A stretch of DNA of 39,285 bases from Sulfurimonadaceae bacterium (GTDB taxonomy: Bacteria > Campylobacterota > Campylobacteria > Campylobacterales > Sulfurimonadaceae), in assembly GCA_041548245.1 (NCBI GenBank), contig JBFESZ010000009.1:1-39285 (forward strand), in the 5' to 3' direction. Below the pieces are notes generated by a model. The model did not search any database. It was not told the origin of the DNA and was given only the letters and a program-made list of their open reading frames with translations. Shown in pieces: positions 1 through 32,502 of this stretch. The first letter of the stretch is position 1; each line of letters begins with the position of its first letter. A program made the position numbers and the translations under genes.

Positions 1-1193
1 AAGAAGTTAAGACCTATCGTCGTTATTGTCTCTTCTGCCTTAGGATCACTCCCGTTTGCCAGCCTCTCTTTTTTATTATAACTATCATACTGGACAAAAA
101 CCGGTAATTTGTATTTTGAGTTCATCGTATGCAAGACATCGTATTCGGCGTTGACAAAATATCCTGAAGCCTTATCAAGAGCTAATTCATATGCATTGTT
201 TTTGTTTAGACCGCCAGTCTCGGTCTGTGCATACAAGGCTTTTAGTTTAGCACCTGAATTCTCATACATAGTATGCACTTCATAGGTCAAGGCGGTAGAA
301 CCGCTCGCTTCACCCTGTCCGGCTGCACCGTAGTAGACAGATCCGCCAAGAAGAAGACCTTCAACACCGCTGTAGTCCAATCGAGCGATACCGGCTACAC
401 GGTTCATCGCTCCTTTCTCTTGCGAACCAATACGACCATTTCTTGTCGTTGTCGTGTCCTGATCTGCAGGATCTAAAGGAGTATGCTTAACAGTATAATC
501 AATCGCATTGACTATACCTAGATTATAGTTCAGACCTGTTTCACCGACTCTACCATAGGCCATCACACCGTTTTCATGCCATGTAGAAGGGATAATCTGA
601 GTCTCCGTTTGTGGACGTTGAATCGTATTGAACAGAGTAGGTTCGTGACGCAGGTTTGTCAGACCCATCGGTACTAACAGGTGTCCCACCTGGATATTGA
701 AGTTTTCATGAAGCAGGAAGTCAAGGTACATGAACTCGACAACCACTTTACCACCACTGTCGGTACTGCCGTGTTCGACTTCCAATTCGACATTAAGCAC
801 GACATTGTCATCAAACTTATAACCGATATATGGGACGAAACGATAGACATCGGCAAAATTATCAGCATTATCCGGAGCTGCATAATACATCTCACCGTAC
901 CCACCGATTGAAAGCGGTGATTTTGAGTAGTATACCTTTGAAGCGGCAGCACCCATTCCATTATGCGATTTGTCTGTATTAACCACATTGAAGTTAAAAC
1001 CTGTTTTGAGATCAGCTGTCTCTTCGATAAGTGTATTGGCTACCTCAGCGGTTTCTTGGTTCTGTTTTTCAACCTTGTTAAGACGTTCAGTCAAAGCTTT
1101 AAGCTGCGCTCTTAGTTCATCAGTCTGTGCATCTGCCATAAGTGATGTTGATAAAGCCGAAGCCACTACCATTGATAGCATTGTTTTTTTCAT
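1..1193 (-). CDS. Outer-membrane porin-like beta-barrel protein, probably iron-regulated (3' end beyond window; not in ORF track)
   Basis: Manual translation from ATG at 1193 (SD AGAGGG upstream): signal peptide MKKTMLSMVVASALSTSLMA, coiled-coil N-terminus, then SIGGYGEMYY, RFVPYIGYKF, ELEVEHG...VVVEFMYLDF, HEPTLFNTIQRP, IIPSTWHENG. The same frame reads ...TIGLNF at the window edge. Confidence 0.8.
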   Translation of the reverse strand, partial: MKKTMLSMVVASALSTSLMADAQTDELRAQLKALTERLNKVEKQNQETAEVANTLIEETADLKTGFNFNVVNTDKSHNGMGAAASKVYYSKSPLSIGGYGEMYYAAPDNADNFADVYRFVPYIGYKFDDNVVLNVELEVEHGSTDSGGKVVVEFMYLDFLLHENFNIQVGHLLVPMGLTNLRHEPTLFNTIQRPQTETQIIPSTWHENGVMAYGRVGETGLNYNLGIVNAIDYTVKHTPLDPADQDTTTTRNGRIGSQEKGAMNRVAGIARLDYSGVEGLLLGGSVYYGAAGQGEASGSTALTYEVHTMYENSGAKLKALYAQTETGGLNKNNAYELALDKASGYFVNAEYDVLHTMNSKYKLPVFVQYDSYNKKERLANGSDPKAEETITTIGLNF

Positions 1194-1214
1194 TGTATTA
1201 ACCCTCTTAATTAC

Positions 1215-1301
1215 TGATAATTGTTATCAATATTGTTTTAAATATGACGAAATAGTACTGATATTTGTTATCAAAGTCAACAGTAATGGTAATAGTTATC
1301 A
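1215..1301. promoter_or_regulatory. Three Fur/PerR-type 7-1-7 boxes upstream of the porin gene
   Basis: TGATAATTGTTATCA (1215-1229), TGATATTTGTTATCA (1259-1273) and TGGTAATAGTTATCA (1287-1301), compared with consensus TGATAATnATTATCA. Confidence 0.75.
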
Positions 1302-1342
1302 AAATATTGACAAAAAAGAGGCTAGAAATATATTGAGTGTGT

Positions 1343-1369
1343 AAAAACAGGACATAAATTGTCCTGTTT
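1343..1369 (-). terminator. Probable intrinsic terminator after the 1394-1780 gene
   Basis: 10-bp stem AAACAGGACA/TGTCCTGTTT with a 5-nt loop, running into a T tract on the minus strand. Confidence 0.55.
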
Positions 1370-1393
1370 GAGAAAATGAGCTTCTTGTATTTT

Positions 1394-1780
1394 TTAAAAA
1401 AGTGCCATGTAGAGAAGATAGGGATAGAGCATCAGGCCCATAGTAAGCATAATGGGATGTAGGGGAAGCTTGAGCATAGTCTTCATCTCCACGCTTAACT
1501 CATCCAGAACAAAGTGCTTGTGAATGAGTTGGACCTTAAAGATGATGTCAATACTTTTTATGAGCAAAATAGCCAATACCCAAAGATTGTATTGAGTGAT
1601 GTAAAAGATATATAGTCCGAGGATATAACTTGGATGCATCAGATAGAGAAGATAGGGGCTTTTAATGTAGTAATGGTATATTTTTTGCAGCATGACCAAA
1701 AGAGTCGGGGACTTTTGCCAGATCATCTCGTAAAGTTCTGCGATGATAAAAAGAATAAAGAGTATAAGTTCATAAGACAT
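1394..1780 (-). CDS. Hypothetical membrane protein
   Basis: 128 aa with about 4 hydrophobic segments; no family recognised. Confidence 0.75.
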   Translation of the reverse strand: MSYELILFILFIIAELYEMIWQKSPTLLVMLQKIYHYYIKSPYLLYLMHPSYILGLYIFYITQYNLWVLAILLIKSIDIIFKVQLIHKHFVLDELSVEMKTMLKLPLHPIMLTMGLMLYPYLLYMALF

Positions 1781-1822
1781 GTGAAATGATAGTATAATTC
1801 CATCAATAAACGAAGGAAATCA

Positions 1823-2542
1823 ATGTCATTATTTTACACCGATGAAGAAGGCGCACGTGTCTGTGTACAGGATTTTTACCCAGAAGAGAACATTTACGAA
1901 GAGAAAACAACACTTCTGTATGTATTTATAAAGTTTGACGGGGATGATGAAGAGCTACTGCTCATAGAGCAAAGATTGCTGGAAAAGTGTAAAAAGCTTC
2001 ATCTCGATTATGTCGGATGGAGAGTGTTTGAAGATTGGTTGGAGTTCTATTTCTACGGTGAAGAGGCAAAGGGCTTCGAGAATGCTCTTAATGATGCACT
2101 CAAACCTGAATATCTTTTTGAAAGCGGACATCGCAAAGACAAGAAGTATGAGACCTATTATAAGATGTTGATGCCCAATGTTCAGGAGTTCCATAATATT
2201 CAAAGTGAAGAGATCATTGCCGATCTGCAAGATGCCGGCGATGACCTGGAAGCTGAACATCGAATAGAGTTTTATGCTATGTTTATGACCTCAGGCCAGA
2301 GAAAACGTTTTATTGAGGCTATTGAAGAGGCAGGTTTTAGTTTCTTGCAGGAGTTTCTTGATGAGAAGGCTGAAGACGATTTTGTCTATGGGGTTGTGTT
2401 CTACAAGCTATCACCGATCAGTATAGAACTTCTTAATTCACATACCCAAGACATCTTTCCACTTATCGAAGCAGAGCATGGCCGTTATGAAGGCTGGGGA
2501 ACAGAGTCTTTGACGGCTATGGAAATGCAAGAGAGCGAATAG
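1823..2542 (+). CDS. DUF695-like / RraB-like domain protein
   Basis: Acidic 239 aa; YVGWR..EFYFY, D..YETY N-terminal half; IIADLQDAGDDL...H.IEFY and GRYEGWGT C-terminus typical of RraB-like domains; SD AAGGA. Confidence 0.7.
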   Translation: MSLFYTDEEGARVCVQDFYPEENIYEEKTTLLYVFIKFDGDDEELLLIEQRLLEKCKKLHLDYVGWRVFEDWLEFYFYGEEAKGFENALNDALKPEYLFESGHRKDKKYETYYKMLMPNVQEFHNIQSEEIIADLQDAGDDLEAEHRIEFYAMFMTSGQRKRFIEAIEEAGFSFLQEFLDEKAEDDFVYGVVFYKLSPISIELLNSHTQDIFPLIEAEHGRYEGWGTESLTAMEMQESE

Positions 2543-2590
2543 TTGTTTTTTTATAGTTCCATGCTTTAGTGAGTTATTAGACATCATTAA

Positions 2591-2599
2591 TGCTACAAT
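2591..2599 (+). promoter_or_regulatory. Extended -10 promoter element for aas
   Basis: TGCTACAAT matches the TGnTAnAAT sigma70 element; about 40 nt upstream of the ATG, with SD AGAGGG between. Confidence 0.5.
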
Positions 2600-2638
2600 A
2601 CTCCCGCTAATTCAACCAATTTAGAGGGTGATATACAT

Positions 2639-5600
2639 ATGTTTGTAAAAGATAGTATCTGGAAAATCAGGGGGCTTCTGCCCTATATTGTGGTGGTTTT
2701 TTTAAACGCGTTCACAGACCTTGGTCATAAAATCATCATCCAGAACACGGTTTTCAAGATCTACGACGGCCAGACTCAGATAATTCTTACGGCCATTGTC
2801 AATGCATTAATCCTCATTCCCTTCGTCCTGCTCTTTACACCTTCAGGTTTTCTCTCAGATAAGTATACTAAAAACAGGGTGATGCGTTATGCCGCATGGG
2901 CGGCTGTGGTGATCACCTTGGGCATTACTCTCTCATACTATCTTGGCGAGTTTGAACTGGCTTTTTTTCTGACATTCATACTGGCAGTCCAATCGGCTCT
3001 GTATTCACCGGCTAAATACGGCTATATCAAAGAGTTGGTCGGGAATAGATATCTGACACTTGGAAACGGGATAGTCCAGGCAGTTACGACGGTGTCAATT
3101 CTTGCGGGTATTTTTGTCTACTCTATATTTTTCGAAGCGCTTTTGTCCCAGAAGGAGTATGCTGACGCGACTACAATATTAAAACATATCGCACCTATCG
3201 GTTGGGCTTTGGTCTTGGGTTCGGTCATTGAGCTGCTCCTTGCATACAGACTGCCAGACACGAAGGTTAAAAGTAATCTTCGATTTAATCTAAAAAAATA
3301 CTATAGCGGAGAGTATCTAAAGACAAATATCAAAGCCATCACACAAGAGAGTGTCATCTTTCACTCAATTATCGGTCTGTCACTTTTCTGGTCGGTCTCA
3401 CAAGTCGTTTTGGCTAGTTTTCCTGCTTATGCCAAGGAGAGTCTGGAAGTGACCAATACGGTGCTGGTCCAGGGGATGATGGCACTTGCCGGTATTGGGA
3501 TTGTTATTGGTTCAATTGTGGCAGGAAAGGTTTCGAAGGACTACATCGAGACGGGGAGTATACCTTTGGGTGCCCTGGGTATTACAGTGACGCTTTTATT
3601 GCTTCCTTTACTTAGAGATCTTAGTATGCATGGTCTAAACTTTTTTGCTTTTGGCTTTTTTGCCGGCCTGTTTATTGTCCCTTTGAATGCCTTGATACAG
3701 TTTAATGCCAAAGAACACGAACTTGGATTGGTTATTGCCGGAAACAATTTTATTCAAAATATCTCTATGATCGCATTTTTAGCATTGACCGTACTCTTCG
3801 CTGTTTTTGGTATGGATAGCATCGGGCTTTTTTATTTGATGTTGATTGTTGCCTTGGTAGGTTCGGTCTATGTGATTGCTTATATTCCCCAGTCATTGGT
3901 CATATTCTTGATTTCTTCACTGCTGTCACGGCGTCTTAAGATTGAAGTTTTAGGGTTTAATAACATTCCTCAAACTGGAGGAGTGTTACTTTTAGGCAAT
4001 CATATCTCATGGTTGGACTGGGCGATTGTACAGATGAGTATACCCAGAGCGGTACGGTTTGTGATGGACAGGTCGATTTACGAAAAGTGGTACCTCAAAG
4101 CATTTTTGGACTTTTTCAATGTCATTCCAGTCTCATCACGCGGTGCGAAAGAGGCCGCCGTCAAGGTAAAAGAGCTTTTGGATGCGGGTGAGGTGGTCTG
4201 TATCTTTCCGGAAGGAAGTATCAGTCGTACGGGCCAGCTATCCGAATTTAAGAAAGGCTTTGAACTCATGGCCAAAGATGCAAATGCAGTGATTGTGCCT
4301 TTCTATTTAAGAGGAATGTGGGGAAGCCGTTTTTCACGTTCATCGGCTAAGTTCAAAGCAACAAAAAAGAGCAGAAAACGCGAAGTGATTATTGCTTTTT
4401 CACAGCCAATAGAGGTTGATGCTACGGCACAACAGGTCAAACAGAAAGTGTTTGAACTCTCACTGACTTCCTGGGAACACCATACTCAGTCTCTTCCATC
4501 CATGCCTCGAGCCTGGGTCAAGACAGCCAAACGATTTGGCAATGATTTCTGTATGGCAGACTCAAAAGGCAACAGCCTCACTTTTACGAAAACTCTGGTA
4601 GCAACGATGCTGTTTTCAGGCTTGATAAAAAGAGTAGAAGAGCAAAACATCGGTATATTGATGCCGACTTCCTCGGCAGGTGCCATTATCAATATGGCTG
4701 CGTTGATGGCAGGCAAGACAGTAGTGAACCTTAACTATACTGCTTCGATAGGTTCAGTATGCTCATCCATAGAAAAAGCACAGATTAGTACGATTTACAC
4801 TTCAAAGATGTTCGTTACGAAGCTTAAAGCGAAGGGCATTGATACGGATAGTTTGCTGAAGAATAAGCAAGTCGTCTATCTTGAGGAATCAAAGGCAGAT
4901 ATCTCAAAGTTTAAGTCAATAGTCACTCTCCTCATTGTTAAACTTTTGCCGGCGTTCATACTAGAAAGAGTCTATGTTAGAAAGGCTTCCAATGAGGAAG
5001 TGGCCGCTATTTTGTTCAGTTCGGGCTCAGAAGGTGAACCAAAGGGTGTCATGCTGACGCATAGAAACTTTATATCAAATATCAAACAGATTGCAGATGT
5101 CTTAAATGTGCGTAGTGAGGATGTTATTTTGGCTTCATTGCCGCTGTTCCATGCTTTTGGCCTGACCGCGACAACTTGGTTGCCACTTATTGAAGGGGTG
5201 CCGATGGTATGTCATCCTGATCCTACCGATGCTGTTGGTATAGCCAAAGCAACAGCGAGTTACAGAGCAACTATTATGTTCGGAACCTCTACGTTCTACA
5301 GGCTTTACACTCGAAACAAAAAAGTGCACCCTTTGATGTTTGAAAGCCTTCGTATCGCTGTGTCGGGAGCTGAAAAATTAAGTCCCGAAGTCAAAGATGC
5401 CTTTAATTCAAAATTCAACAGGAACATACTGGAAGGATATGGGGTGACAGAGTGTGCACCTGTAGCCAGTGTCAACCTTCCCGATGTACTTGAAACTGAC
5501 GGGTTTACAGTACAGGTCGGCAATAAGGAGGGAAGTGTAGGTATGCCACTTCCGGGTACGGCATTTAGGATTGTCGACCCGCATAGTATGCAGGAATTGA

Positions 5601-10143: not shown

Positions 10144-11757
10144 TTAAGCTACCTTGTTGGCAATAAAACAGGGTATATTGATGAGGAAACAGGCTCCCTC
10201 TTTATATTTTGTATCTAGTTGGATAGTGCCGTTAAGGTGTTGTGTGACAAGGTTATAGGTGATGTTAAGTCCCAAACCGGTACCTCCTCTATTACGTTTG
10301 GTTGTGATAAAAGGCTCAAATATTTTATCGCTCACGGCCTCATGGATTCCTTTACCTGTGTCTTTAAAGACAATAGAAACTCTTTCATCATGACGTCTGG
10401 TCTGTAATATGATCTTTCCTTCCTGATCTGGATCAAAAGCGTGTAAGAGAGCGTTTTGAAGCATATTGACAACGATCTGTGAGATTGCACCTGGGTAAGA
10501 GTGCATCTCGATAGGGCTTTCGTCTAAGTCCAATACCAGCTCTACTGGACGATGTTTGAGCTCACTCTTAAAGGTCGAAATGACTTCTTTTAAATAGGTA
10601 TTGAGTTCAAAGCTTCGTATCTCTTCGCTGCTTTGATCCACAGAGATCTTTTTGAAGTTTTTGACGAGTTGCGCTGCACGATCAAGGTTTTTCATCAGAA
10701 TCTCATCGGCTTCACCAAGGGTCTCAATAAAACTTTCCAAAGAAGATTTGCTCAACTTGTTTGCTTCAAGCATCTCCTTGATATTTCTGATCTCATTTTT
10801 GAAGATGGACGCTGCAGTGATAGAGATACCAAGTGGCGTATTGACCTCATGGGCGACACCAGCAACGAGATTTCCCAAAGCAGACATTTTTTCTGATTCG
10901 ATCAGTTGGGCCTGAGTGTTTTGCAGACGGTTGAAACTTTCTTGAAGTTCGAGAGTACGGGTTTTGACCCTGTCTTCAAGTTCATTCGTTAAACGTTCTA
11001 GGTGTGCTTGGTACGTACGCGAAATAGTCTCAGCTTCTTCTCGTTCACGACCGCGCTGCTGAATCTTGTCAAGCATGGTATTGAAATCATCATAAAGTTG
11101 ACCAACCTCGTCTTGATACTGTTTCTGGGCGCGAATACTATAATCTTCGCTTAGTGATATCTCTTGTGCTGTTTTGGCAAGCGTGATAATCGGTGAAGTG
11201 ATGTATTCTTGTATCTTGTAAATTATGAGCAGGGATGTAAGGCTTAGTACGGCCATAAGTCCGAGCAGAAAAGTCCCGTATTTGATCAATGTCTGCGAAA
11301 TTTCGCGTGTTGAGACATAAAATACAATCGTACCGTAAGTGTGATCCTTGTATGTTATGGGCTGAATCAGAAGGAGTTCATCTTCGAGCTCTTTGGTTGA
11401 AGCAGACAAAGAATCTATACTCTGTGGTAGCAGTATCTCCTTTTTGGCGTCTTTTAAATAGCTGGTATACATTTGCAAGCTACTGTCATAAATGACGGCA
11501 GCCTTGATGTTAGCAATCGTATTGAGCTTTGACAATACCTCTTGAGCTCCAGTTTTGTCATCAAATATAAGTGGGGTAACAGCATAGTCAGAGATGAGTT
11601 TTGCATGAAGTCTAGCCTGTTCGGAAAGCTCTGTCTTTGCACGATTGTATTCTATAATAAACATGAAAGATGAGAAAGTTCCCAAGGCCAGGATGAGCAA
11701 AACGATAATCGATATGATGAGCTTTGACTTGATGGAAAAGTCAGAAAACCTGTTCAT
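10144..11757 (-). CDS. Membrane sensor histidine kinase (CHASE8-like periplasmic domain, HAMP, HisKA, HATPase)
   Basis: Two TM helices; periplasmic PLIFDD..GAQEVLS.L...IKAAVIYD resembling the YfiN sensor; HAMP DEVGQLYDDFNTML; H-box AHEVNTPLG; N, G1, F and G2 boxes (NALLHAF, DTGKG, FEPF, GTGLGL). Confidence 0.92.
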   Translation of the reverse strand: MNRFSDFSIKSKLIISIIVLLILALGTFSSFMFIIEYNRAKTELSEQARLHAKLISDYAVTPLIFDDKTGAQEVLSKLNTIANIKAAVIYDSSLQMYTSYLKDAKKEILLPQSIDSLSASTKELEDELLLIQPITYKDHTYGTIVFYVSTREISQTLIKYGTFLLGLMAVLSLTSLLIIYKIQEYITSPIITLAKTAQEISLSEDYSIRAQKQYQDEVGQLYDDFNTMLDKIQQRGREREEAETISRTYQAHLERLTNELEDRVKTRTLELQESFNRLQNTQAQLIESEKMSALGNLVAGVAHEVNTPLGISITAASIFKNEIRNIKEMLEANKLSKSSLESFIETLGEADEILMKNLDRAAQLVKNFKKISVDQSSEEIRSFELNTYLKEVISTFKSELKHRPVELVLDLDESPIEMHSYPGAISQIVVNMLQNALLHAFDPDQEGKIILQTRRHDERVSIVFKDTGKGIHEAVSDKIFEPFITTKRNRGGTGLGLNITYNLVTQHLNGTIQLDTKYKEGACFLINIPCFIANKVA

Positions 11758-12260
11758 TTGATGACCTCATGGGCAGATTTAAGCAAGAGATAGCTTATTT
11801 TGATATCAGCTTGCTGGGCTGCTCTATTATTGATGACGTATTTAAAGCGGTTGTCAACCAGGAACATGGTAATCATGACATTATTGTCAATATACTCTTT
11901 ATTGTCAGTAACGGTCAACATGGCTCTTCCGGAGATCTGCTTTAAAGTTTTTACAATATCGCGTGTGTTTTTTCCAATAAACAAGAGATTGCATTGCGGT
12001 ATTTTCTGATTTTCGCCTAAGCGTATAATATTGACATCTTTCTTACCGAATTTTTTATTTTGGTAGATATGTTCAAGTGCATTGGCAAAGTCTGTGTTGT
12101 TTAAAACACAGATGGTAAACTCCAGACTCTGTTCTGTTTCTGGCCACTCGATGAGACGAGTAAACTTCTCCAAGAAAACAGCTTGTACCTGTGTCGGTGT
12201 TACAGCATGTGCTTGACATGAAAGGAATAGTGCTAAAACAAGTACTGGCAGATGCCTCAT
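11754..12260 (-). CDS. YfiR family periplasmic protein
   Basis: Signal peptide (AHA|V), AVFLEKFTRLIEWP, FTICVL, CNLLFIG, LTVTD, INNRAAQQADIKISYLLL. Confidence 0.88.
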   Translation of the reverse strand: MRHLPVLVLALFLSCQAHAVTPTQVQAVFLEKFTRLIEWPETEQSLEFTICVLNNTDFANALEHIYQNKKFGKKDVNIIRLGENQKIPQCNLLFIGKNTRDIVKTLKQISGRAMLTVTDNKEYIDNNVMITMFLVDNRFKYVINNRAAQQADIKISYLLLKSAHEVIK

Positions 12261-13981
12261 AAGAGAGGGTCCTCTTCATGGGATAGGGTGGGTTTAGGCT
12301 CACTGATATAGTAGCCTTGAGAGTACTTGATATCAAAACTCTTGACAAGTTCAAAGATCTCCTTGTCACAAACAAACTCGGCTACAAGGTCGATACCTAC
12401 ATTATTGGCAAAGTAGACGATGCTGTCAACCATTTTGTAAGAGAGGGGGTCCTTGAGGTTTTTGATAAAGGAACCGTCAATCTTGATGGAATCAAGTTGT
12501 AGATTCAAGATATTGGCAAAGTTTTGACACTCAGCGCCAAAATCATCAAGAGAAATTTTACAACCTAATGATTGCAGACGGGCAATATTGTCTCGGGCAT
12601 TTGGAATATTGTTAAGTGAGTTGTTCTCCAAGATTTCCAAAATTAAACGCGAAGGTGTGATGCCGTTTGCTTCAAGTACACTGCTGACAAAGTCGGCAAA
12701 ACCTTTATCCTGTAGATCATGACTGGTGATATTGATTGAGAAATCAAGTTTGTTTTCAGCGAACACTTTGGCACTTTTTTCGAGCATTACATAGGTGATC
12801 TTTGTCAGTAGGCCTGTCTCTTGCGCCACACTTAAAAAAGCAAAAGGAGAGATGACTTTCTCATCTTTGATCATACGTACCAAGCACTCATACTTTTCTA
12901 TTTTCTTGGTTCGGTTGTTATATATCGGTTGAAAATAGGGGATTATTCGCTCTTCTTTTAGCGCATGCTTGATCTCTCTGAACCATTCGATATTGTTCTG
13001 AATCTGCTGCAGAACATGCATCTTTGTACTGTAGCGCTGTACTCTGTTCGAACTGATAAGGCGTGCTTCTTTTATAGCCAGGTCAGCCTTGTTGACAAGG
13101 TCCTCCGACTCATTTTCAACGATTCCTACAGTAAAGGTAATGTTGAAATCAATATCCTCATGGGTAAAGTTATTGTTCATAAACCTTTTTTGAATAAGCG
13201 AAACTACCTCGTCAGTTTCTTCAGCAGACGAATGTGTACGTAAAAGTAGAAATTCGTCAACACCGATATGATAGAGCCTGTTGCCGGTTGACTCAAGCAG
13301 ACTCAGTGATTTGGCTATCTCTTTGATGACATAGTTTCCCTGTTCATATCCGTACAGGTCATTAATGTGACTGAACCTGTCAATGTTCAAGAGGATAATT
13401 GTTACCTTTTCAAGTTCCAGCAGGTCATCGTGAAGTTTGTGCCTGTTGTAAAGTTTTGTCAAAGGGTTTTGCAATACCTCTTTGTAAAGTGTCGCTTTTT
13501 CCAGATTGGCTTTTTCAATATCGGAGTAGTTGATAATAGCCATCTTGACAGAGCTGTATAGTCTGTCTGCATTGAGTTCAGTTTTTTCTTTGTAGTCGTT
13601 GATATCATAGTTGTCTATGACGAATTTTTCAGGAGCAAGCCCGGATTGTCCTGTGCGGATAACTATACGAAGGTTTGGATTGAGAAGGACCTGCCTGATG
13701 TACTTTGTCAGCTCCAGACCGGCATCGGCTGTCTCCATGACCACATCGATAAGTGCCACATGATAACTGTTGTCATGCTCAAGCAGTTCGCGGGCCTCTT
13801 TGGCGGAATATACTGAGGTGAAGCTCAAAGGCCTCTCATCCACCTTCATGTTTTTGAGTGCAAGCTTTGTGACTTCGTGGATGCCATGGTCATCATCCAC
13901 AATGAGTATTTTCCATGGCTTTTTGGCAACGACAGCAGGTTTAACCTCTTCGTCCTGAAAAAGAAATTCATCCATTCCCAC
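12257..13981 (-). CDS. Response regulator with REC + degenerate GGDEF + EAL domains (probable c-di-GMP phosphodiesterase)
   Basis: REC: ILIVDDD, LIDVVME, IRTGQ, YKEK. GGDEF reads GVDEF. EAL: YECLVR, SIN, LEILE, DDFG, IKIDGSF, AEFV, QGY. GTG start with AAGGA SD. Confidence 0.9.
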   Translation of the reverse strand: MGMDEFLFQDEEVKPAVVAKKPWKILIVDDDHGIHEVTKLALKNMKVDERPLSFTSVYSAKEARELLEHDNSYHVALIDVVMETADAGLELTKYIRQVLLNPNLRIVIRTGQSGLAPEKFVIDNYDINDYKEKTELNADRLYSSVKMAIINYSDIEKANLEKATLYKEVLQNPLTKLYNRHKLHDDLLELEKVTIILLNIDRFSHINDLYGYEQGNYVIKEIAKSLSLLESTGNRLYHIGVDEFLLLRTHSSAEETDEVVSLIQKRFMNNNFTHEDIDFNITFTVGIVENESEDLVNKADLAIKEARLISSNRVQRYSTKMHVLQQIQNNIEWFREIKHALKEERIIPYFQPIYNNRTKKIEKYECLVRMIKDEKVISPFAFLSVAQETGLLTKITYVMLEKSAKVFAENKLDFSINITSHDLQDKGFADFVSSVLEANGITPSRLILEILENNSLNNIPNARDNIARLQSLGCKISLDDFGAECQNFANILNLQLDSIKIDGSFIKNLKDPLSYKMVDSIVYFANNVGIDLVAEFVCDKEIFELVKSFDIKYSQGYYISEPKPTLSHEEDPLL

Positions 13982-25076: not shown

Positions 25077-25571
25077 ATGTTTTTTATAGGGATGATCTAC
25101 CAGTTTAATAGTGACCAAGGTACCGGTCTCATCATGTCATCAGATGGGGAAACAAAAGAGTTTAGTGTTGACAACTGGACAGATGAGAGTCAGACTCCAT
25201 ACATAGGTCTTCAGGTCTTATATGAGTACACAGATAATACAACAAAGATCAGAGTGGCAACTGAGTCTGAAAAGAGTGAAGATAAGCTAAGACAGCAGAG
25301 ACAAAGAGAAGCTGCCAATACCCAGCCCGTAGTGGAGTCTCCGACGATGCCTTCAGACAACAAGTCTCATGATGCTATTAAATCCGTAGATGAGCAGATA
25401 CAGTTTTATAAAGATGAGGGTTTCAACCTGATCAATGATATTGATGAGAATGGTTTACGAAAGGCGAGATTGCGAAGATATGTTATGGGTGAATTTGCAG
25501 AAGTGCTTATCGAGTGTAAAGATAATGATATCACAGTAACGAAAACGCTTAACGGTCAAAAGGTCGACTAG
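25077..25571 (+). CDS. Hypothetical protein with cold-shock-like (OB-fold) N-terminus
   Basis: GMIYQFNSDQGTGLI...G...P.IGLQV.YE resembles CSD-like domains; low-complexity linker; unknown C-terminal domain; starts 2 nt after the mog stop. Confidence 0.7.
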   Translation: MFFIGMIYQFNSDQGTGLIMSSDGETKEFSVDNWTDESQTPYIGLQVLYEYTDNTTKIRVATESEKSEDKLRQQRQREAANTQPVVESPTMPSDNKSHDAIKSVDEQIQFYKDEGFNLINDIDENGLRKARLRRYVMGEFAEVLIECKDNDITVTKTLNGQKVD

Positions 25572-25611: not shown

Positions 25612-25647
25612 TAATCTATTATATAAAATTTTATATAATAGATTATA
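25610..25647. repeat. Perfect 38-bp palindrome
   Basis: TATAATCTATTATATAAAA|TTTTATATAATAGATTATA, checked base by base; overlaps the xth stop codon. Confidence 0.9.
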
Positions 25648-26413
25648 TGTCTAGTTTAATACCAACAGGACAGTGATCAGAACCCATGACATCTTGCATG
25701 ATGTAAGCATCTTCAAGGCATTCAATGAGATCATCAGAGATAAAGAAATAATCTATTCTCCATCCGACATTTTTTGCGCGGGCACCAGAACGGTATGACC
25801 ACCAGCTGTATTCATCCTCTTTGTCACCGTTAACATATCGAAAGGTGTCTACATAACCATGTTCAAGTAGTTTATCTATCCACTCTCGTTCAATCGGCAA
25901 GAAACCTGAAGTCTTTGAGTTTGCTTTTGGATTTTTCAGATCTATCTCTTTGTGTGCGGTGTTGACATCTCCACAAATAACAATCGATTTTCCATTCTCA
26001 CGTAAAGTATTGCAATGTTCTAGAAAGTCTTCATAGAACTTCATTTTAATCGTAAGTCTTTCATCATCTTTTTGTCCATTGGGAAAGTAGACATTAAAAA
26101 GTACAAAATCACCGAAGTCCTGTTCAATAATACGTCCCTCTCGTCCTAGATCAATTTCATGACGGTTGTGCGTGTACTCAGGTGCCATTGCCGACCATGT
26201 TGCGGTTCCTGAATATCCCTTTTTATCAGCACTATTAACAGCACGCGATACATATTCCAGTTCAAAAAGGTCGTTAGGTATTTGATCTTCTAAGGCTTTG
26301 ATTTCTTGTAGGCAAAGGATATCCGGTTCTCTTTCATCAATCCATTTAAGTGCATCTTTATTCGCAACTGCCCGTATACCGTTAACGTTCCATGAAATAA
26401 TTTCTATTGACAC
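25643..26413 (-). CDS. xth: Exodeoxyribonuclease III
   Basis: SWNVNGIRA, CLQEIK, GYSG, VYFPNG, GDVNTAH, WRIDYF, SDHCP; GTG start at 26413 after AAAGG. Confidence 0.94.
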   Translation of the reverse strand: MSIEIISWNVNGIRAVANKDALKWIDEREPDILCLQEIKALEDQIPNDLFELEYVSRAVNSADKKGYSGTATWSAMAPEYTHNRHEIDLGREGRIIEQDFGDFVLFNVYFPNGQKDDERLTIKMKFYEDFLEHCNTLRENGKSIVICGDVNTAHKEIDLKNPKANSKTSGFLPIEREWIDKLLEHGYVDTFRYVNGDKEDEYSWWSYRSGARAKNVGWRIDYFFISDDLIECLEDAYIMQDVMGSDHCPVGIKLDI

Positions 26414-26660
26414 TGAAAAACCTTTATTCTTTAATTCACACATACGGTGATACTTGTGACGGAATTCTATCGAAGATGATGTGTACCGTGGCTTAATGAA
26501 TATACCCAAATGTTTACTTAAAATGAAACTAATTTACTATAAAAAGAGGGTAGATCTTTTTTACACATCTATCGTTATGGCAGGGGTTTGTAGTGATCAA
26601 TTCGACCTAATTCCGTTTTTTTAGATTATAATAATTTGAAATTATTTCTCAGGAGAGAGA

Positions 26661-27776
26661 GTGAAACGTGAAATTCATATAGAACTGTTCAGGTTTAATG
26701 AGCAAACAGACTATCTTCCATATTATCAAAAACATCTGCTAGATTACAGTGAAGATGATACGATTAATGACTTGCTGATCAAAATGGACAGAATAGATGC
26801 CTTCGGTTTTGATGAAAACTGCAATCTTAAGGTCAATGAACTTTACATCAATGCACGTGAGAAAGTTACTTCAATTGTGCAAAGATGTGGGAATGTAATA
26901 CAGATTAACCCAATCAGTGAATTCAGAGCGAAGAAAGATCTTAAGATAGACAACAGTGACTTTATTGACAAGTTGTCTCTGATTCAAGAATATATCTCGG
27001 CTGAAGAAAACATAGCCTATAGAAAAAGTACTGAGTTGGCATATTATGCTTCAAATACCCTGAACTACAATAGGGACTATATTGGTGACCATGTGCTAAT
27101 TATTGCAGCAGATCTTATTGAACAACGTTTTGAGATTAAAAACAGTATTTTACAGAAGCTTATAGACCATGAAAATGGCATTTGGTTCCATACATCCCTT
27201 GCAAACAGGATGCTGAGCGGTGATGTAGAAGCAAAGATTCAAAAAGTTATTTATTTGGCGAATCAATATATCAAACCAAGTTCAAGGCTTGCGAAAAAGC
27301 TAGCAAGTTTTTGTGATAAAAAGAGTATTAAAAACTTTGAAGAGTCAGGTGCGGCCAAAATTCCCAAAAAAGTCGTTCAACCTTTTGACGGATTCAATAT
27401 TGCTTTGTACAGCGGTGTAGAAGAGAGTCCTTTGAAAAATCTTATCGATGCATCGAAGGCATCATATATACAGATCCCCTCATATAGTGAAGACCTGGCA
27501 CCGTACTCCGTACGTGTAGATGAAAACTTTTCGTATAGGATTGCCGCAGATATTTTAGTGCAGGCAAAAGACAATAACGCTGATTTTGTTCTTGTCAAAA
27601 ATGACGTGACCAGAGAGTTCTTTGACAAGAACCAAAACAAAATGCAAAAGATTGCAGGAAGAGAGCTTGGTCTTAGTGTCATCTCTCAGGATCAGTTTAT
27701 ACAGCTGTTAGAGGGTGAGAAGAATACTCAAAGACTTGGTTTTGATAAACATAAGGTGAAGGTCTCTTTTTTATAA
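26661..27776 (+). CDS. Degenerate SdhB-SdhE(HdrB) fusion homologue lacking Fe-S motifs (possibly DUF5644 family)
   Basis: FRFN..DYLP.Y and RAKKDL.ID..DF align with SdhB in this window; FNIAL, DNNADF and AGRE..L.V align with the C-half of SdhE; only 3 Cys; SD AGGAG before GTG. Confidence 0.82.
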   Translation: MKREIHIELFRFNEQTDYLPYYQKHLLDYSEDDTINDLLIKMDRIDAFGFDENCNLKVNELYINAREKVTSIVQRCGNVIQINPISEFRAKKDLKIDNSDFIDKLSLIQEYISAEENIAYRKSTELAYYASNTLNYNRDYIGDHVLIIAADLIEQRFEIKNSILQKLIDHENGIWFHTSLANRMLSGDVEAKIQKVIYLANQYIKPSSRLAKKLASFCDKKSIKNFEESGAAKIPKKVVQPFDGFNIALYSGVEESPLKNLIDASKASYIQIPSYSEDLAPYSVRVDENFSYRIAADILVQAKDNNADFVLVKNDVTREFFDKNQNKMQKIAGRELGLSVISQDQFIQLLEGEKNTQRLGFDKHKVKVSFL

Positions 27777-27963
27777 TCATTATGCCTTGAAGTGTCTCTC
27801 AAGATTCCATTGCGATCTTGACTGCTTCACTGTCGTATCATTGATATTTTATTGAATTACCCAATATATAAAAAAACTGATCTCTTGAACAGGCTTTATT
27901 AAATAATTGTCTTATACAGGATTTAATGTAAATCGCAATATCATAGGTAAAAAGTGACAGATA

Positions 27964-28812
27964 ATGAAGAATAATCGTGCGACCTTTTTGCTTCTTAATC
28001 TAATCCTCCTTATCACTTCTTCGTACGCCATAGACTTAACTACGCAAAATAGAGTGCAAACAAATGTAGATACCAAAATTACTTTGAAAACACAAGACTT
28101 GATAGAAGTCGGGGTCCAGGCTTATTGGTATAAATATGAAGAAGAGGTAGATGGTGATTTTTTTATGTCTACAGCCGGAAAAAAGTTAGGTTTGTCATTG
28201 ACAGCCACTAAAATTATCGACACAAATATATATCTTATTGGTGATTTTCGTTATGCGGCCGGTGATGTCGAATACAACAGTGATTCGGGTACTGGTGATA
28301 TATCTGAATATATGTATGAGTCGCGTGTTTTAATGGGGATTGAGAAAGTCATTGATGGTATATTCTGGTCTCCCTTCCTCGGTCTTGGATACCGTTATCT
28401 GTTTAATGACTTAAGAAGCTTGGGAAGTGGTGGATATAGAAGAGAAAGCCGTTATATTTATATCCCTGTTGGTCTTACCCACCGTTTCAAACTCAATCAG
28501 AAATCCCGTATTGCCACTACGTTTGAATATGACTACTTTGTAAAAGGCAAGCAGAAGAGTCATCTTTCGGATATTGGACCTGATTGGGCCGCCGTATTTG
28601 GTGATCCGGTGAATGAACAAAAGCATGGCTATGGGATAAGACTTCATACAAGCTACGAGGAGAAAAACTGGTCAATAGGCGTGTTTTATAACTACTGGAA
28701 GATTGAAGACTCAGAAAAAAACTATTATCTTGATCCCCCATTTCTCTACAGTATTGTAGAGCCTAAAAATGAGACAAAAGAGCTTGGCATACAGCTAAAG
28801 TATCGGTTTTAA
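27964..28812 (+). CDS. Outer-membrane beta-barrel protein of unknown function
   Basis: Signal peptide (SYA|I), Tyr/Gly-rich amphipathic strands (GLGYRYL, YIYIPVG), C-terminal LKYRF BAM signal. Confidence 0.82.
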   Translation: MKNNRATFLLLNLILLITSSYAIDLTTQNRVQTNVDTKITLKTQDLIEVGVQAYWYKYEEEVDGDFFMSTAGKKLGLSLTATKIIDTNIYLIGDFRYAAGDVEYNSDSGTGDISEYMYESRVLMGIEKVIDGIFWSPFLGLGYRYLFNDLRSLGSGGYRRESRYIYIPVGLTHRFKLNQKSRIATTFEYDYFVKGKQKSHLSDIGPDWAAVFGDPVNEQKHGYGIRLHTSYEEKNWSIGVFYNYWKIEDSEKNYYLDPPFLYSIVEPKNETKELGIQLKYRF

Positions 28813-28871
28813 GCATCACCTGAGTAAAAATGATAGATTGTTGACTCAAGGTCAAAAGAAAGTGGAGTGAT

Positions 28872-28905
28872 GACATCGGGCCTTGTTGCACCCGATATCT
28901 TTTTT
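28872..28905. terminator. Intrinsic terminator, probably bidirectional
   Basis: GACATCGGG/CCCGATATC stem with a TTTTTT tail on the + strand; lies between convergent genes, just past the sdhE stop. Confidence 0.6.
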
Positions 28906-28909
28906 GAAA

Positions 28910-29788
28910 TTATGCGAAGTTGACTTCTGATACGTGGTGCTGAAGACCAAGTTCTTTGCCATCGATACCAAAGGCAAGACCGATCATCTGTTGCATGTGA
29001 AGAACCGGAAGCTTCACGTCACGGCCGACAGCTTTAGAAGCATGCTCGTACTGCGTATCAAGCTTAAGGTGACAAAGCGGGCATGGTGTGACCATCCAGT
29101 CTGCATTGTTATCCATTGCACCCATAAGTGCATTACCTGTTAGGGTCGCAGCGGTATGCGGAGCCTGAAGCTCTGCATGGAAACCACAACATTTGTTTTT
29201 CTCTTCATAGTCAACGTTTTTACCACCGCAAGCAAGGATAAGATCGTCAAGTGAAGTCGGTGCATAAGCATTTTCGTGACCGTTCGAATCTTCGTGTGTT
29301 TCAGAAGGACGAATGTTGTGACAACCGTAAAATGGTGCTATATTGAACTCTGCAAGTGGCTTGACGACCATCTTTTTAAGGTTGTCAAGACCAAAGTCAT
29401 CGATAATGGCATATAGGAAGTGTTTGATCTCAGATGTACCTTTGTACTCAAGACCGACTTCTGCAAGCTTCTCATTGACTTTTGCTTTCATCTCTGGGTC
29501 ATTGTCAAGACGACGTTTTGTCAGCATTGTGTTGAGCTGACAAGTATTACAGATGGTCACCATTGTCATGCCGCGAGATTCTGCATAACAGATGTTGCGC
29601 GCATTTAAGACAAGTGATAAGAACTCATCATAGTCTTGAAGGTGAGAAGCACCACAGCAGGTCGCTTCTTCCAGAATTTCAAGCTCGATTCCCATCTTAT
29701 CGGCGATAGCCATAGTTGACATCATCTGTTCTGGTGTACTTTGACGTGCAGTACAACCGGTGAATAGTGCATATTTAAGTTTAGACAT
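28910..29788 (-). CDS. sdhE: CCG-domain (HdrB-like) anchor subunit of type-E succinate dehydrogenase/fumarate reductase
   Basis: Two CCG domains: FTGC..TCCG..ICNTC and FYGC..KCCG..PCPLC; no TM helices; follows sdhB. Confidence 0.88.
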   Translation of the reverse strand: MSKLKYALFTGCTARQSTPEQMMSTMAIADKMGIELEILEEATCCGASHLQDYDEFLSLVLNARNICYAESRGMTMVTICNTCQLNTMLTKRRLDNDPEMKAKVNEKLAEVGLEYKGTSEIKHFLYAIIDDFGLDNLKKMVVKPLAEFNIAPFYGCHNIRPSETHEDSNGHENAYAPTSLDDLILACGGKNVDYEEKNKCCGFHAELQAPHTAATLTGNALMGAMDNNADWMVTPCPLCHLKLDTQYEHASKAVGRDVKLPVLHMQQMIGLAFGIDGKELGLQHHVSEVNFA

Positions 29789-29799
29789 TGTTGTACTCC

Positions 29800-30780
29800 T
29801 TAGAACTTAGCTGTAGAAGAGATCTCTACAAGTTTTTTGATCTCATCAAGTTTGTCAGATTTTGGAACAATAAATGGATTGATATGTGCCTTTCCTTTGG
29901 CAATCATCTTCGCGCCGACTTTAAGGTGCTTATACATCCCGTACCCTTTTTCAGAGTAGATTACCAGACCGGCTTCATTTAACTGGCCATGTTTGGCAAT
30001 AGAGTCTTTGAAATAGACAGCGTGACGTGTGGCAATATTGTTAAGCGGCTTGCCTTCTGTAAACACCATATTATGAAGTTTTGTGATCTTCTCAATTGGG
30101 TTGACATCTTTTGGACAAACTTCCGCACACTCCATACATTTAACACAGTCCCAAACACCTTGACCTTCTGCATTGATAACATCAAGACGTTCACGGTGAG
30201 CATCATCACGGACATCAGCTTCAAAACGGTATGCTTTCGCAAAAGCAGCAGGCCCGATGAACTGTTCATTGATCTCAAGAGCAGGGCATGAATAGTGACA
30301 AGCCCCACATTGAATACAGTAGTCGGCTTCAAGGAGTTGTTCTGCCTCTTTAGGCGTGACAATGTGTTCATGTTCAGGGTGTTCTTCAACATCGGAGATA
30401 AGGTAAGGTTTGACCTGATCATGTTTGATCCAGAAGTCTTCCTTGTCAATAATAAGGTCTTTAAGCGCACGCTTGATACTTAGTGGTTCAATCGTCAATG
30501 TAGTACCATAAGTCTCGACAAGCTTCAGTACATTCTCTTTACATGCTAGAATGGCTTTACCATTGACTTTTACTGAACAGATACCACAGATACCGTGACG
30601 GCAAGAACGACGATAAGAAAGCGTACCATCAAGTTCATTTTTGATATGAGTTAAAATATCAAGGATAACATTCTCATGCGTAACATCTACATCATAGTCG
30701 ATATAGGTCGGTAAATAATCCATTTCAGAATTGAAACGGAATACTTTGAAAGTAATTTTTGTAGTAGGTATTGCACTCAT
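29800..30780 (-). CDS. sdhB: Succinate dehydrogenase/fumarate reductase iron-sulfur subunit
   Basis: SCRHGICGIC...AC, CIQCGACHYSCP, CVKCMECAEVCP; C-terminal extension. Confidence 0.93.
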   Translation of the reverse strand: MSAIPTTKITFKVFRFNSEMDYLPTYIDYDVDVTHENVILDILTHIKNELDGTLSYRRSCRHGICGICSVKVNGKAILACKENVLKLVETYGTTLTIEPLSIKRALKDLIIDKEDFWIKHDQVKPYLISDVEEHPEHEHIVTPKEAEQLLEADYCIQCGACHYSCPALEINEQFIGPAAFAKAYRFEADVRDDAHRERLDVINAEGQGVWDCVKCMECAEVCPKDVNPIEKITKLHNMVFTEGKPLNNIATRHAVYFKDSIAKHGQLNEAGLVIYSEKGYGMYKHLKVGAKMIAKGKAHINPFIVPKSDKLDEIKKLVEISSTAKF

Positions 30781-30789
30781 ATGCTCTCC

Positions 30790-32502
30790 TTAGTAACTTC
30801 TGGCTTTTAGCTCATGTTTGCCAAGAACGACATCCATGTAGTCTAGAGTAACATTTCCGTCTTTGTCCATGTACCCCATAGTGTGCTTTAAGAAGTTTTC
30901 ATCATCACGTGTAGGGTAGTCTTCACGATAGTGAGCCCCACGACTTTCTTTACGTGCTAGTGCTGATTGTACGATAAAAGCACAGTAATCTAGCATATGA
31001 CCAAATTCGATTGCTTCTTGCAACTCTGTATTGAAGATTTTTGATTTGTCCGCAATACGGATGTTTTTATAACGCTTGCGCAGTTCTCTGATTACGTCAA
31101 CCTGTTTCTCAAGTGTTTCTTGTGTACGGAAAACACCTGCATTGTCAGTCATTGATTGTTGTAGTTCGTGTCTTAGATCCGAAACTTTTTCCGTACCGTT
31201 GTTTGTAAGGATGAATTCAAGTTCTTCATTCATACGTGCAGCATCAGCTTCAGTCGCCGCACGTAGATCGATACCATCAACCTCTTCAGCCATCGTTTTA
31301 CCAACAAAACGACCAAACAGCAGTGCCTCAAGAACAGAGTTTGCACCTAGGCGGTTTGCACCATGGACTGAAACACATGAGCATTCACCCGCAGCATAAA
31401 AGCCCTCAACGAATTCATCGTTGTTCTTACGTACATGCCCTTTAACATCACATGGAATACCACCCATTGAGTAGTGTGCAGTTGCAGAGATAAGGATAGG
31501 CTCCTTGATCATATCAAGACCTAAGAAGGTGATTGCAAGGTCACGGAGCTCAGGAAGTCTTTCCATGATTTTCTCTTTACCAAGGTGGACAAGGTCAATA
31601 TAGACAGCATCTTTTCTTGGTCCTACACCGCGACCTTCACGGATCTCTTGGATAATAGCACGGGCAACAACGTCACGTGAAGCAAGTTCCATAGCGTTAG
31701 GAGCATATTTCTCCATAAAACGCTCACCTTTAGAGTTAAGAAGACGTCCACCTTCACCGCGTGCAGCCTCAGAGATAAGAACACCGTTTCCTGAAAGACC
31801 GGACGGGTGAAACTGTACAAATTCCATATCTTCAAGAGGAAGACCGTGGCGTGCAACTAAAGAAAGACCGTCACCTGTATTGGCATGGGCATTAGAATTG
31901 ATTTTGAATGAACGTGCATATCCACCTGTTGCAAACATTACGGTTTTAGCGTTAAAGATCGCTTTTTCAGAATTGCGGATGTTATAAGCAGCAATACCGT
32001 ATACTTTACCATTTTCATATAGAAGGTCGGCAGCATACCATTCGTCAAAGAATTTAACACCATAACGATGTGCTTGTTCGTAAATAGTTTGTAAAAGAGT
32101 AAGACCTGTTCTGTCTTTTGCGAAACATGCACGTGGAGATGATTGTCCTCCAAAAGGGCGTTGTGCGATTTTTCCATCTTCAGTACGAGAAAAAGCGGCA
32201 CCCATACGTTCAGCCCAACGGATTGTTTCAGGTGCTTTTTTACACATAAATTCAACACAGTCTTGATCTGCAAGGTAGTCGGCACCTTTTACAGTATCAA
32301 ACTCATGTAGTTCAACACTATCCTCATCACTAAAAGCAGCATTGATCCCGCCTTGTGCTGCACCTGAGTGTGAACGTAAAGGGTGTAGTTTTGTAATTAC
32401 AGCGACTTTTTTGCCAGCTTTTTCTAGCTCTAATGCTGCGGCACAACCTGCAAGACCGGCACCAACAACAATAGCGTCATAAGTATAAATAGGAATACTC
32501 AT
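30790..32502 (-). CDS. sdhA: Succinate dehydrogenase/fumarate reductase flavoprotein subunit
   Basis: [60 protein letters not shown] before ATG 32502. Confidence 0.95.

Follow-up and report, generated by a model that had tools for sequence, protein, structure and literature searches.

Complex II enzymes hold a central place in respiration and in the reductive tricarboxylic acid cycle of Campylobacterota, the phylum to which the pathogens Campylobacter and Helicobacter belong. In the 39,285-nt stretch of contig JBFESZ010000009.1 analysed here (the window; all coordinates are counted from its first letter), a gene that we refer to as the ghost gene accompanies the complex II genes sdhABE and encodes a cysteine-depleted fusion of an SdhB-like and an SdhE-like part belonging to the DUF5644 family. 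Among the closest described systems, TfrB, subunit B of the thiol:fumarate reductase of methanogens, is a natural fusion of SdhB and an HdrB-type protein and has the same domain order in one polypeptide. However, TfrB bears clusters and spans 488 profile positions, whereas the ghost protein has no ligands and scores 14.9 bits on NF004898 against a cut-off of 385. Because stand-alone halves of the ghost protein exist, the two fusions are probably independent. The 8-methylmenaquinol:fumarate reductase (MFR, 'SdhABE') of Wolinella succinogenes and Campylobacter jejuni is of type E and comes from the same phylum, as is the case for the enzyme of the window (PMC2680327). In that paper, the SdhA of MFR is given a twin-arginine translocation (Tat) leader and no FAD-linking His, whereas the SdhA of the window has the FAD-linking His motif and lacks a twin-arginine leader. 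The MFR models score below their cut-offs on the window's sdhABE, which is distinct from the periplasmic MFR known from Wolinella and Campylobacter and encodes a cytoplasmic-looking type-E enzyme. We also considered whether the ghost protein is MfrX and rejected this identity; in the excerpt of PMC3847290, mfrX is an open reading frame (ORF) of small size in the 5′ leader upstream of mfrABE.

The assembly factors of complex II (SdhE/SDHAF2 and SDHAF1/3/4) are described in mitochondria and in model bacteria such as Escherichia coli (PMC10238741). They resemble the ghost protein in proposed logic only, that of a non-redox binder acting before or instead of a partner (PMC10238741), but they have no sequence or fold relation to it, and none of their families was matched in Pfam, NCBIfam, or Foldseek searches. 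The closest relative of known structure comes from Helicobacter pylori. HP0468 appears as an annotated DUF5644 protein in a flagellar-sheath comparison (excerpt of PMC9570263), and elsewhere as a hypothetical protein of ~495 aa, found in a genome-wide association study (GWAS) of gastric cancer and said to be up-regulated by H2 (excerpt of PMC6090961). Entry 3KWL, present in a list of structures of unknown function (excerpt of PMC3397514), is an unpublished crystal structure released in 2010 of an H. pylori 'hypothetical' or 'uncharacterized protein'; the profile of our 36-row ghost alignment (A1) matches 3kwl_A at E = 2.8e-31, i.e. it is a family member. HP0468/3KWL shares with the ghost protein an N-terminal FRF..DY.P.Y motif, the helical DUF5644 domain, a C-terminal HdrB-like domain, and a low Cys content. 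It differs in having both CCG-type domains at ~495 aa, whereas the ghost protein of 371 aa lacks most of the first. No published function for DUF5644, HP0468, or 3KWL was found in the literature searched.

Homology, fold, and ligand loss of the ghost protein

The ghost gene and its parts are as follows.

26661..27776, + strand: ghost gene, ORF of 371 aa, Cys-depleted SdhB-like and SdhE-like fusion of the DUF5644 family
26510..26660, no strand: intergenic region common to the ghost gene and the divergent xth, with the Shine-Dalgarno sequence and TATAAT within it (sequence reading)
26661..26975, + strand: residues 1–105, 2Fe-2S-ferredoxin-like domain without the cluster loop (Fer2_3 over residues 7–102, E = 4e-5, below cut-off)
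26976..27275, + strand: residues 106–205, helical DUF5644 domain, a degenerate 4Fe-4S/third-cluster domain (DUF5644 over residues 109–186, and alignments)
27276..27380, + strand: residues 206–240, variable linker (low pLDDT and low conservation)
27381..27776, + strand: residues 241–371, HdrB-like C-terminal (second CCG-type) domain without Cys (HdrB-like_C match)

The ghost gene begins with a GTG codon, its frame is intact, and both the N terminus and the length of its product agree with relatives of 369–372 aa. Sequence reading places AGGAG 7–11 nt and TATAAT ~30 nt upstream of the start; the intact frame and the Shine-Dalgarno sequence reported in a preliminary description of the locus are both borne out. 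A generic promoter and terminator scan around the gene gave a signal not above that of shuffles.

Homology to SdhB covers the first ~200 residues of the ghost protein, and its final ~135 residues are homologous to the second of the two CCG domains of SdhE. Using BLASTP, the ghost protein matches the SdhB of the window at E = 2e-14 (27% identity over 257 columns) and its SdhE at E = 2e-9 (24% identity over 223 columns). Profile–profile comparison with hhalign gave a probability of 99.7 (E = 2.1e-25) with type-E SdhB and of 98.6 (E = 6.6e-16) with SdhE, versus only 23 (E = 9e-4) with type-B FrdB from related loci. As the matches to the type-E profiles are far stronger, the ghost protein descends from the type-E SdhB/SdhE lineage and not from Frd. 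Residues 1–105 align to SdhB 7–120, with the Cys loop deleted or substituted, and the C-terminal domain aligns to SdhE 124–292 (hhalign). These matches uphold the preliminary reading of the gene as a fusion of SdhB with the second CCG domain of SdhE. The ghost protein and the SdhB and SdhE encoded alongside it thus have parent folds and sequences in common, but the type-E C-terminal extension of SdhB and most of the first CCG domain are missing from the ghost protein, its two halves are fused in one chain, and it has lost every CCG Cys along with 11 of the 12 ligand Cys of SdhB.

The loss of ligands can be followed motif by motif. The ghost protein has three Cys (C54, C76, and C218), and C54, which aligns to SdhB C68, is the sole one at an SdhB ligand position; the other 11 positions are substituted or deleted. 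Cys occupies the C54 column in 12 of the 36 relatives in A1, hence it is not conserved, and no column of A1 rises above 33% Cys. The SdhB loop bearing C60 and C65 is either missing or replaced, depending on the alignment (BLASTP or profile–profile), and a deletion removes the segment containing C155 and C158, which both ligate the first 4Fe-4S cluster. SdhB C161 and C165 are replaced by Tyr and Asn inside a conserved YYASNT motif, and the third Cys motif of SdhB has become W(F/Y)HTSL.NR; YYASNT and W(F/Y)HTS, both conserved, thereby stand in place of Cys motifs in residues 106–205. The former cluster motifs carry polar residues, of which S131 is invariant, N132 and S179 are nearly so, and H177 is His in 30 of the 36 rows. 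No CCG-motif Cys was present in the ghost protein at positions aligned to the SdhE motifs by BLASTP or hhalign. The count of lost Cys given in the preliminary description, 11 of the 12 SdhB ligands and all of those in the CCG motifs, therefore agrees with the alignments. With one of 12 ligand Cys kept, the ghost protein lacks the iron-sulfur ligand set of SdhB/FrdB.

PF22196 (HdrB-like_C) scores 36.1 bits over residues 284–365, above its cut-off of 33.4, and PF18712 (DUF5644) 21.1 bits against a cut-off of 25 by hmmscan; the precomputed domains of the ghost entry (P0001) list both PF18712.8 and PF22196.2. The Pfam scan gave no PF02754 (CCG) match, and the first CCG domain is largely absent. 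TIGR00384 scores 30.3 bits against a cut-off of 88, and all SdhB/FrdB equivalog models are far below their cut-offs. The nearest Atlas clusters carry the name DUF5644. An HP0468-like protein (P0228) has DUF5644 at 2.6e-48 and is matched by the A1 profile at 2.4e-29, and full-length homology and fold are common to the ghost protein and undoubted DUF5644 members (P0228 and 3KWL). The link to DUF5644, raised as a possibility at the outset, is borne out by the precomputed and homologue domains, 3KWL, and the Atlas cluster names.

An AlphaFold2 (AF2) model built from the 36-row alignment has a predicted local distance difference test (pLDDT) score of 91.8 and a predicted TM-score (pTM) of 0.86. Its only weak part is the linker at ~205–240, with pLDDT of 61–82 in three 10-residue blocks covering 211–240. 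The mean frequency of the commonest residue is 0.24 in the linker (206–240) versus 0.56–0.58 elsewhere. When this model was compared with the PDB by Foldseek, the top match was 3KWL (E = 1.4e-17, TM-score 0.76, query-length normalised), followed by FrdB/SdhB chains (E of ~1e-8 to 1e-5), and HdrB chains were found at E of ~1e-4. The TM-scores of 0.62–0.67 (target-length normalised) with the listed bacterial and vertebrate FrdB/SdhB chains indicate the two-domain SdhB fold. The resemblance to SdhB and HdrB, on which the preliminary description staked its proposal, is therefore found at the level of the predicted fold as well.

Family spread, forms, and selection

A word-indexed search gave 164 homologues of the ghost protein, and an exhaustive profile search gave, at E ≤ 1e-3, 405 representative clusters, of which 110 also pass E ≤ 1e-30. 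Among 120 listed homologues, the number of Cys per protein ranges from 0 to 6, and four have none. A CxxCxxC motif occurs in one of 145 further representatives (P0121–P0265), which is a true SdhB matching positions 3–118 only. The ghost-family alignment has 22 invariant columns in addition to long common motifs. For the closest 40 of 95 ghost pairs (identity of the pairs from 75% to 99.5%), the ratio of nonsynonymous to synonymous substitution rates (dN/dS; Nei–Gojobori) is 0.03–0.20 at dS of 0.19–1.03, which reveals purifying selection and excludes the neutral decay that the preliminary description had named as one of the outcomes that would overturn it. Its view of the gene as a derivative of SdhB and SdhE is supported: the ghost gene is fused, intact, cluster-less, and under purifying selection.

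The family occurs in several forms. In the long form (P0228, P0223, and P0251; 482–573 aa), the fusion includes both CCG-type domains, and residues 236–495 of P0228 align to the whole of SdhE, i.e. to both of them. There are also stand-alone SdhB-like halves (P0185 and P0197, ~214–245 aa) and stand-alone Cys-poor SdhE-like proteins (P0237 and P0252, ~275 aa), with P0237 matching SdhE at a probability of 98.9. Judged from these sequences, the forms suggest a series of duplication, ligand loss, and fusion, followed by loss of the first CCG-type domain in the lineage of the window; the order of these steps is one that we infer.

The combination of Fer2_3, DUF5644, and HdrB-like_C is an already catalogued Campylobacterota family that includes H. 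pylori. The novelty claimed for the gene in the preliminary description was overstated, as Pfam has models for each of the three parts and the crystal structure dates from 2010. A reading of the DUF5644 family as an SdhB–SdhE module that is devoid of clusters and linked to the operons of complex II was not encountered in the literature searched.

Linkage to sdhABE and frdCAB, and the neighbouring genes

A genome scan that gave 207 relatives left 79 loci with flanks of up to 10 kb, to which the context counts below refer. In 32 of the 79 loci, as well as in the window, sdhABE lies within 10 kb of the ghost gene (tblastn), in most cases as its immediate neighbour. Four arrangements occur: (1) the ghost gene and sdhABE are convergent, as in the window; (2) they are divergent, with 135–200 bp between them; (3) ghost-sdhA-sdhB-sdhE lie on one strand with gaps of 69–219 bp, in 15 Arcobacteraceae loci; and (4) sdhA-sdhB-sdhE-ghost lie on one strand with gaps of 97–140 bp, in 3 Sulfurimonas loci. 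Two of these four look operon-like, and in the three same-strand gaps examined the coding strand showed no terminator-like site. Mapped on the ghost tree, the arrangement label changes at least nine times. All 33 sdhABE-linked cases (the 32 loci and the window) fall in one clade of 43 rows. Of its 10 unlinked rows, L001, L006, L007, L015, L028, and L037 have less than 3.7 kb of flank on one side, and L005 and L040 less than 3.7 kb of upstream flank.

A second kind of complex-II operon is linked to the ghost gene as well. In four loci (L002, L003 at 624–5415, L008, and L020), frdC-frdA-frdB-ghost lie on one strand with ~150–195 bp between frdB and the ghost gene, and all three frd genes score above curated cut-offs. 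Convergent sdhABE genes follow further downstream in L002, L003, and L008, and L020 stops inside the ghost gene. Locus L013 has frdCAB, xth, and sdhABE together.

In the Arcobacter-type loci, the gene directly 3′ of the ghost gene is F1, a conserved ORF of 206 aa with no Pfam or NCBIfam match, which occurs in 41 loci (L041–L079, e.g. L042:11116–11736, and L023:15406–16029). In four Arcobacteraceae loci of the 43-row clade, F1 lies downstream of sdhABE and a desulfoferrodoxin-like gene, which fits an excision of sdhABE from between the ghost gene and F1. The exodeoxyribonuclease gene xth adjoins the ghost gene in 20 of the 79 loci; in the Sulfurimonas loci L038, L043, and L062, it stands 3′ of the ghost gene on the same strand with a gap of a few bp.

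The closest relatives are from Sulfurimonadaceae, and the 79 loci are from Campylobacterota except for L016 (Bacteroidota label), L052 (Minisyncoccota label), and L045 (no phylum label). L016 (NVXU02000027.1) and L052 (JBGSBO010000062.1), labelled Fluviicola (Bacteroidota) and Candidatus Paceibacteria, respectively, carry Sulfurimonas- and Arcobacter-type ghost loci with matching synteny, suggesting that they are mis-binned contigs in those metagenome-assembled genomes.

The genes around the ghost gene in the window are the following.

25643..26509, − strand: xth (exodeoxyribonuclease III), divergent and upstream of the ghost gene (Pfam/NCBIfam)
27964..28812, + strand: outer-membrane-like ORF of 282 aa between the ghost gene and sdhE
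28910..29788, − strand: sdhE, CCG-domain subunit, parent of the ghost C-terminal domain (Pfam CCG in two stretches, E = 2.8e-23; NCBIfam)
29800..30780, − strand: sdhB, iron-sulfur subunit of type E that has 12 ligand Cys and is the parent of the ghost N-terminal half (Fer2_3 and Fer4 families)
30790..32502/32571, − strand: sdhA, flavoprotein (TIGR01816, 756.7 bits against a cut-off of 727)

The sdhE, sdhB, and sdhA genes are on the minus strand and convergent with the ghost gene. SdhA has 570 aa when counted from the Met aligned with its relatives (alignment A2), and the Cys columns of SdhB are invariant in alignment A3. The intervening ORF of 282 aa, on which the preliminary description is silent, has a signal-peptide-like N terminus, a C-terminal ...YRF, and a weak match to the Autotransporter beta-domain (E = 0.0047). 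Because tblastn found counterparts of it in none of the 79 related loci, it is probably a lineage-specific insertion of an outer-membrane protein. The remainder of the window is housekeeping chromosome. It includes an apparent operon (10144..13981, − strand) of a GGDEF-EAL protein, a YfiR-like periplasmic protein, and a 'YfiR-like-associated' histidine kinase, as well as an ORF of 164 aa (25077..25571, + strand) with no NCBIfam match and no counterpart in the 79 loci.

Possible roles of the ghost protein

We favour the reading that the ghost protein serves complex-II-type enzymes (SdhABE and/or FrdCAB) as an accessory protein without a redox function, which we hold tentatively and to which we give a probability of roughly 0.4. 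It is the best single reading because of the origin of the protein, its persistent place next to sdhABE, whatever its side and orientation, and its place after frdCAB. The ghost protein would be a soluble, cofactor-less structural copy of the SdhB–SdhE module of type-E succinate/fumarate oxidoreductase. An sdhB–sdhE pair may have been duplicated in an ancestor within Campylobacterota, and the duplicate would then have lost its cluster ligands, leaving conserved Tyr, Asn, Ser, and His at the former cluster motifs. Depending on the lineage, the halves would have stayed separate, fused whole, or, as in the window, fused without most of the first CCG domain. As a fold without ligands cannot transfer electrons, the protein must act by binding, and it could be a placeholder or chaperone in assembly or a pseudo-subunit that stabilises or regulates. 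Binding to a subunit of complex II, the identity of that subunit, and the effect of the binding are points that we infer. A more specific version, in which a dedicated cluster-less SdhB–SdhE mimic docks on the flavoprotein or on the Fe-S/CCG subunits and chaperones or gates the assembly of both SdhABE and FrdCAB, appears unlikely. A complex prediction for SdhA (A2) with the ghost protein (A1) scored 0.00 with the controls not run and weighs neither way on binding.

Several observations weigh against an accessory role. In complex-II structures, the 2Fe-2S loop faces the flavoprotein. In the ghost protein, this loop, which in SdhB carries three of the four ligands of the 2Fe-2S cluster, is missing or substituted, depending on the alignment, and the stretch of SdhB bearing two ligands of the first 4Fe-4S cluster is deleted. 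Retention of the interaction surfaces, as held in the preliminary description, is therefore in doubt, and a simple SdhB-like docking of the ghost protein on SdhA cannot be taken for granted. The family extends to H. pylori, which has frdCAB and is not known to have sdhABE. L039 and L060, both in the 43-row clade, have no sdhABE despite full 10-kb flanks, and the other clade, comprising 36 of the 79 loci, is of the Arcobacter type with murA-ghost-F1 and no complex-II flavoprotein gene within 10 kb. The ghost gene also evolves faster than sdhA, sdhB, and sdhE in the same genome pairs (dN of 0.17–0.47 versus 0.02–0.13). The linkage itself may be synteny left from the birthplace of the gene, with the arrangements being local flips in a conserved block, and part of it is indeed general synteny, because xth, thiL, and truD are likewise retained in that block. 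No experiment or publication tying any family member to complex II was found.

The main rival draws on these same observations and proposes that the SdhB/SdhE scaffold was re-purposed for a job outside complex II, such as binding another protein or a small molecule, so that the linkage is merely historical and reflects slow decay of synteny. We regard this as a real possibility, if a somewhat doubtful one. In its favour, the ghost gene persists in the 36-locus clade with conserved neighbours of its own (murA and F1), the whole xth/sdhABE/thiL/truD block is syntenic and the linkage not specific to the ghost gene, the SdhA-facing loops are altered, and dN exceeds that of the parent genes. Moreover, HP0468 was found in the gastric-cancer GWAS (PMC6090961) and the flagellar-sheath comparison (PMC9570263), the excerpts of which make no link to respiration. 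However, the ghost gene switches side and orientation and yet still adjoins sdhABE in the majority of the linked loci, 18 of which show short same-strand gaps, and a second kind of complex-II operon, frdCAB, precedes it in four. The proposal of the preliminary description that the ghost protein is a permanent extra subunit of type-E SdhABE alone, whether structural or a decoy, is improbable. It would explain why the protein is closest to type-E SdhB/SdhE and why operon-like ghost-sdhABE and sdhABE-ghost arrangements exist, but not the occurrence of the family in H. pylori and in 36 loci without nearby sdhABE, nor the separate convergent transcription unit in the window and its closest relatives, nor an evolution several-fold faster than that of SdhA, SdhB, and SdhE. 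The tie to the type-E complex accordingly stands as far as repeated sdhABE linkage goes, and the 36 of 79 loci without it, the four frdCAB loci, and H. pylori speak against an exclusive one.

The conserved S131, N132, S179, and H177 at the former cluster motifs could be taken to mean that a metal or cluster is bound through non-Cys ligands (His, Asp, or Tyr) in a retained redox or sensing role. However, no Cys is conserved, several ligand-bearing segments are deleted outright, and 3KWL is listed only as an uncharacterised protein, which makes such a site very unlikely. Finally, loss of the catalytic ligands and a dN above that of the parent genes might be expected of a decaying duplicate, a pseudogene in progress, but this is refuted by the full-length intact frame, the 405 representative clusters at E ≤ 1e-3, the dN/dS of 0.03–0.20 in the closest 40 of 95 pairs, the 22 invariant columns, and the fact that a member has been crystallised.

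The ghost protein is thus an ordinary member of the catalogued DUF5644 family for which an accessory role in complex II is a testable reading; what was first observed at this locus is confirmed, and its interpretation is partly supported. The complex-II reading would offer a lead on what is done by a domain of unknown function for which a crystal structure is already available. A conserved protein that keeps the shape of an electron-transfer module without its clusters would clearly exemplify a pseudo-subunit. If the more specific docking version is true, it would be an assembly factor in the guise of a pseudo-subunit, a kind that has not been described for complex II. Should the tie to complex II prove false, the family still shows an Fe-S fold outliving the loss of all its clusters.

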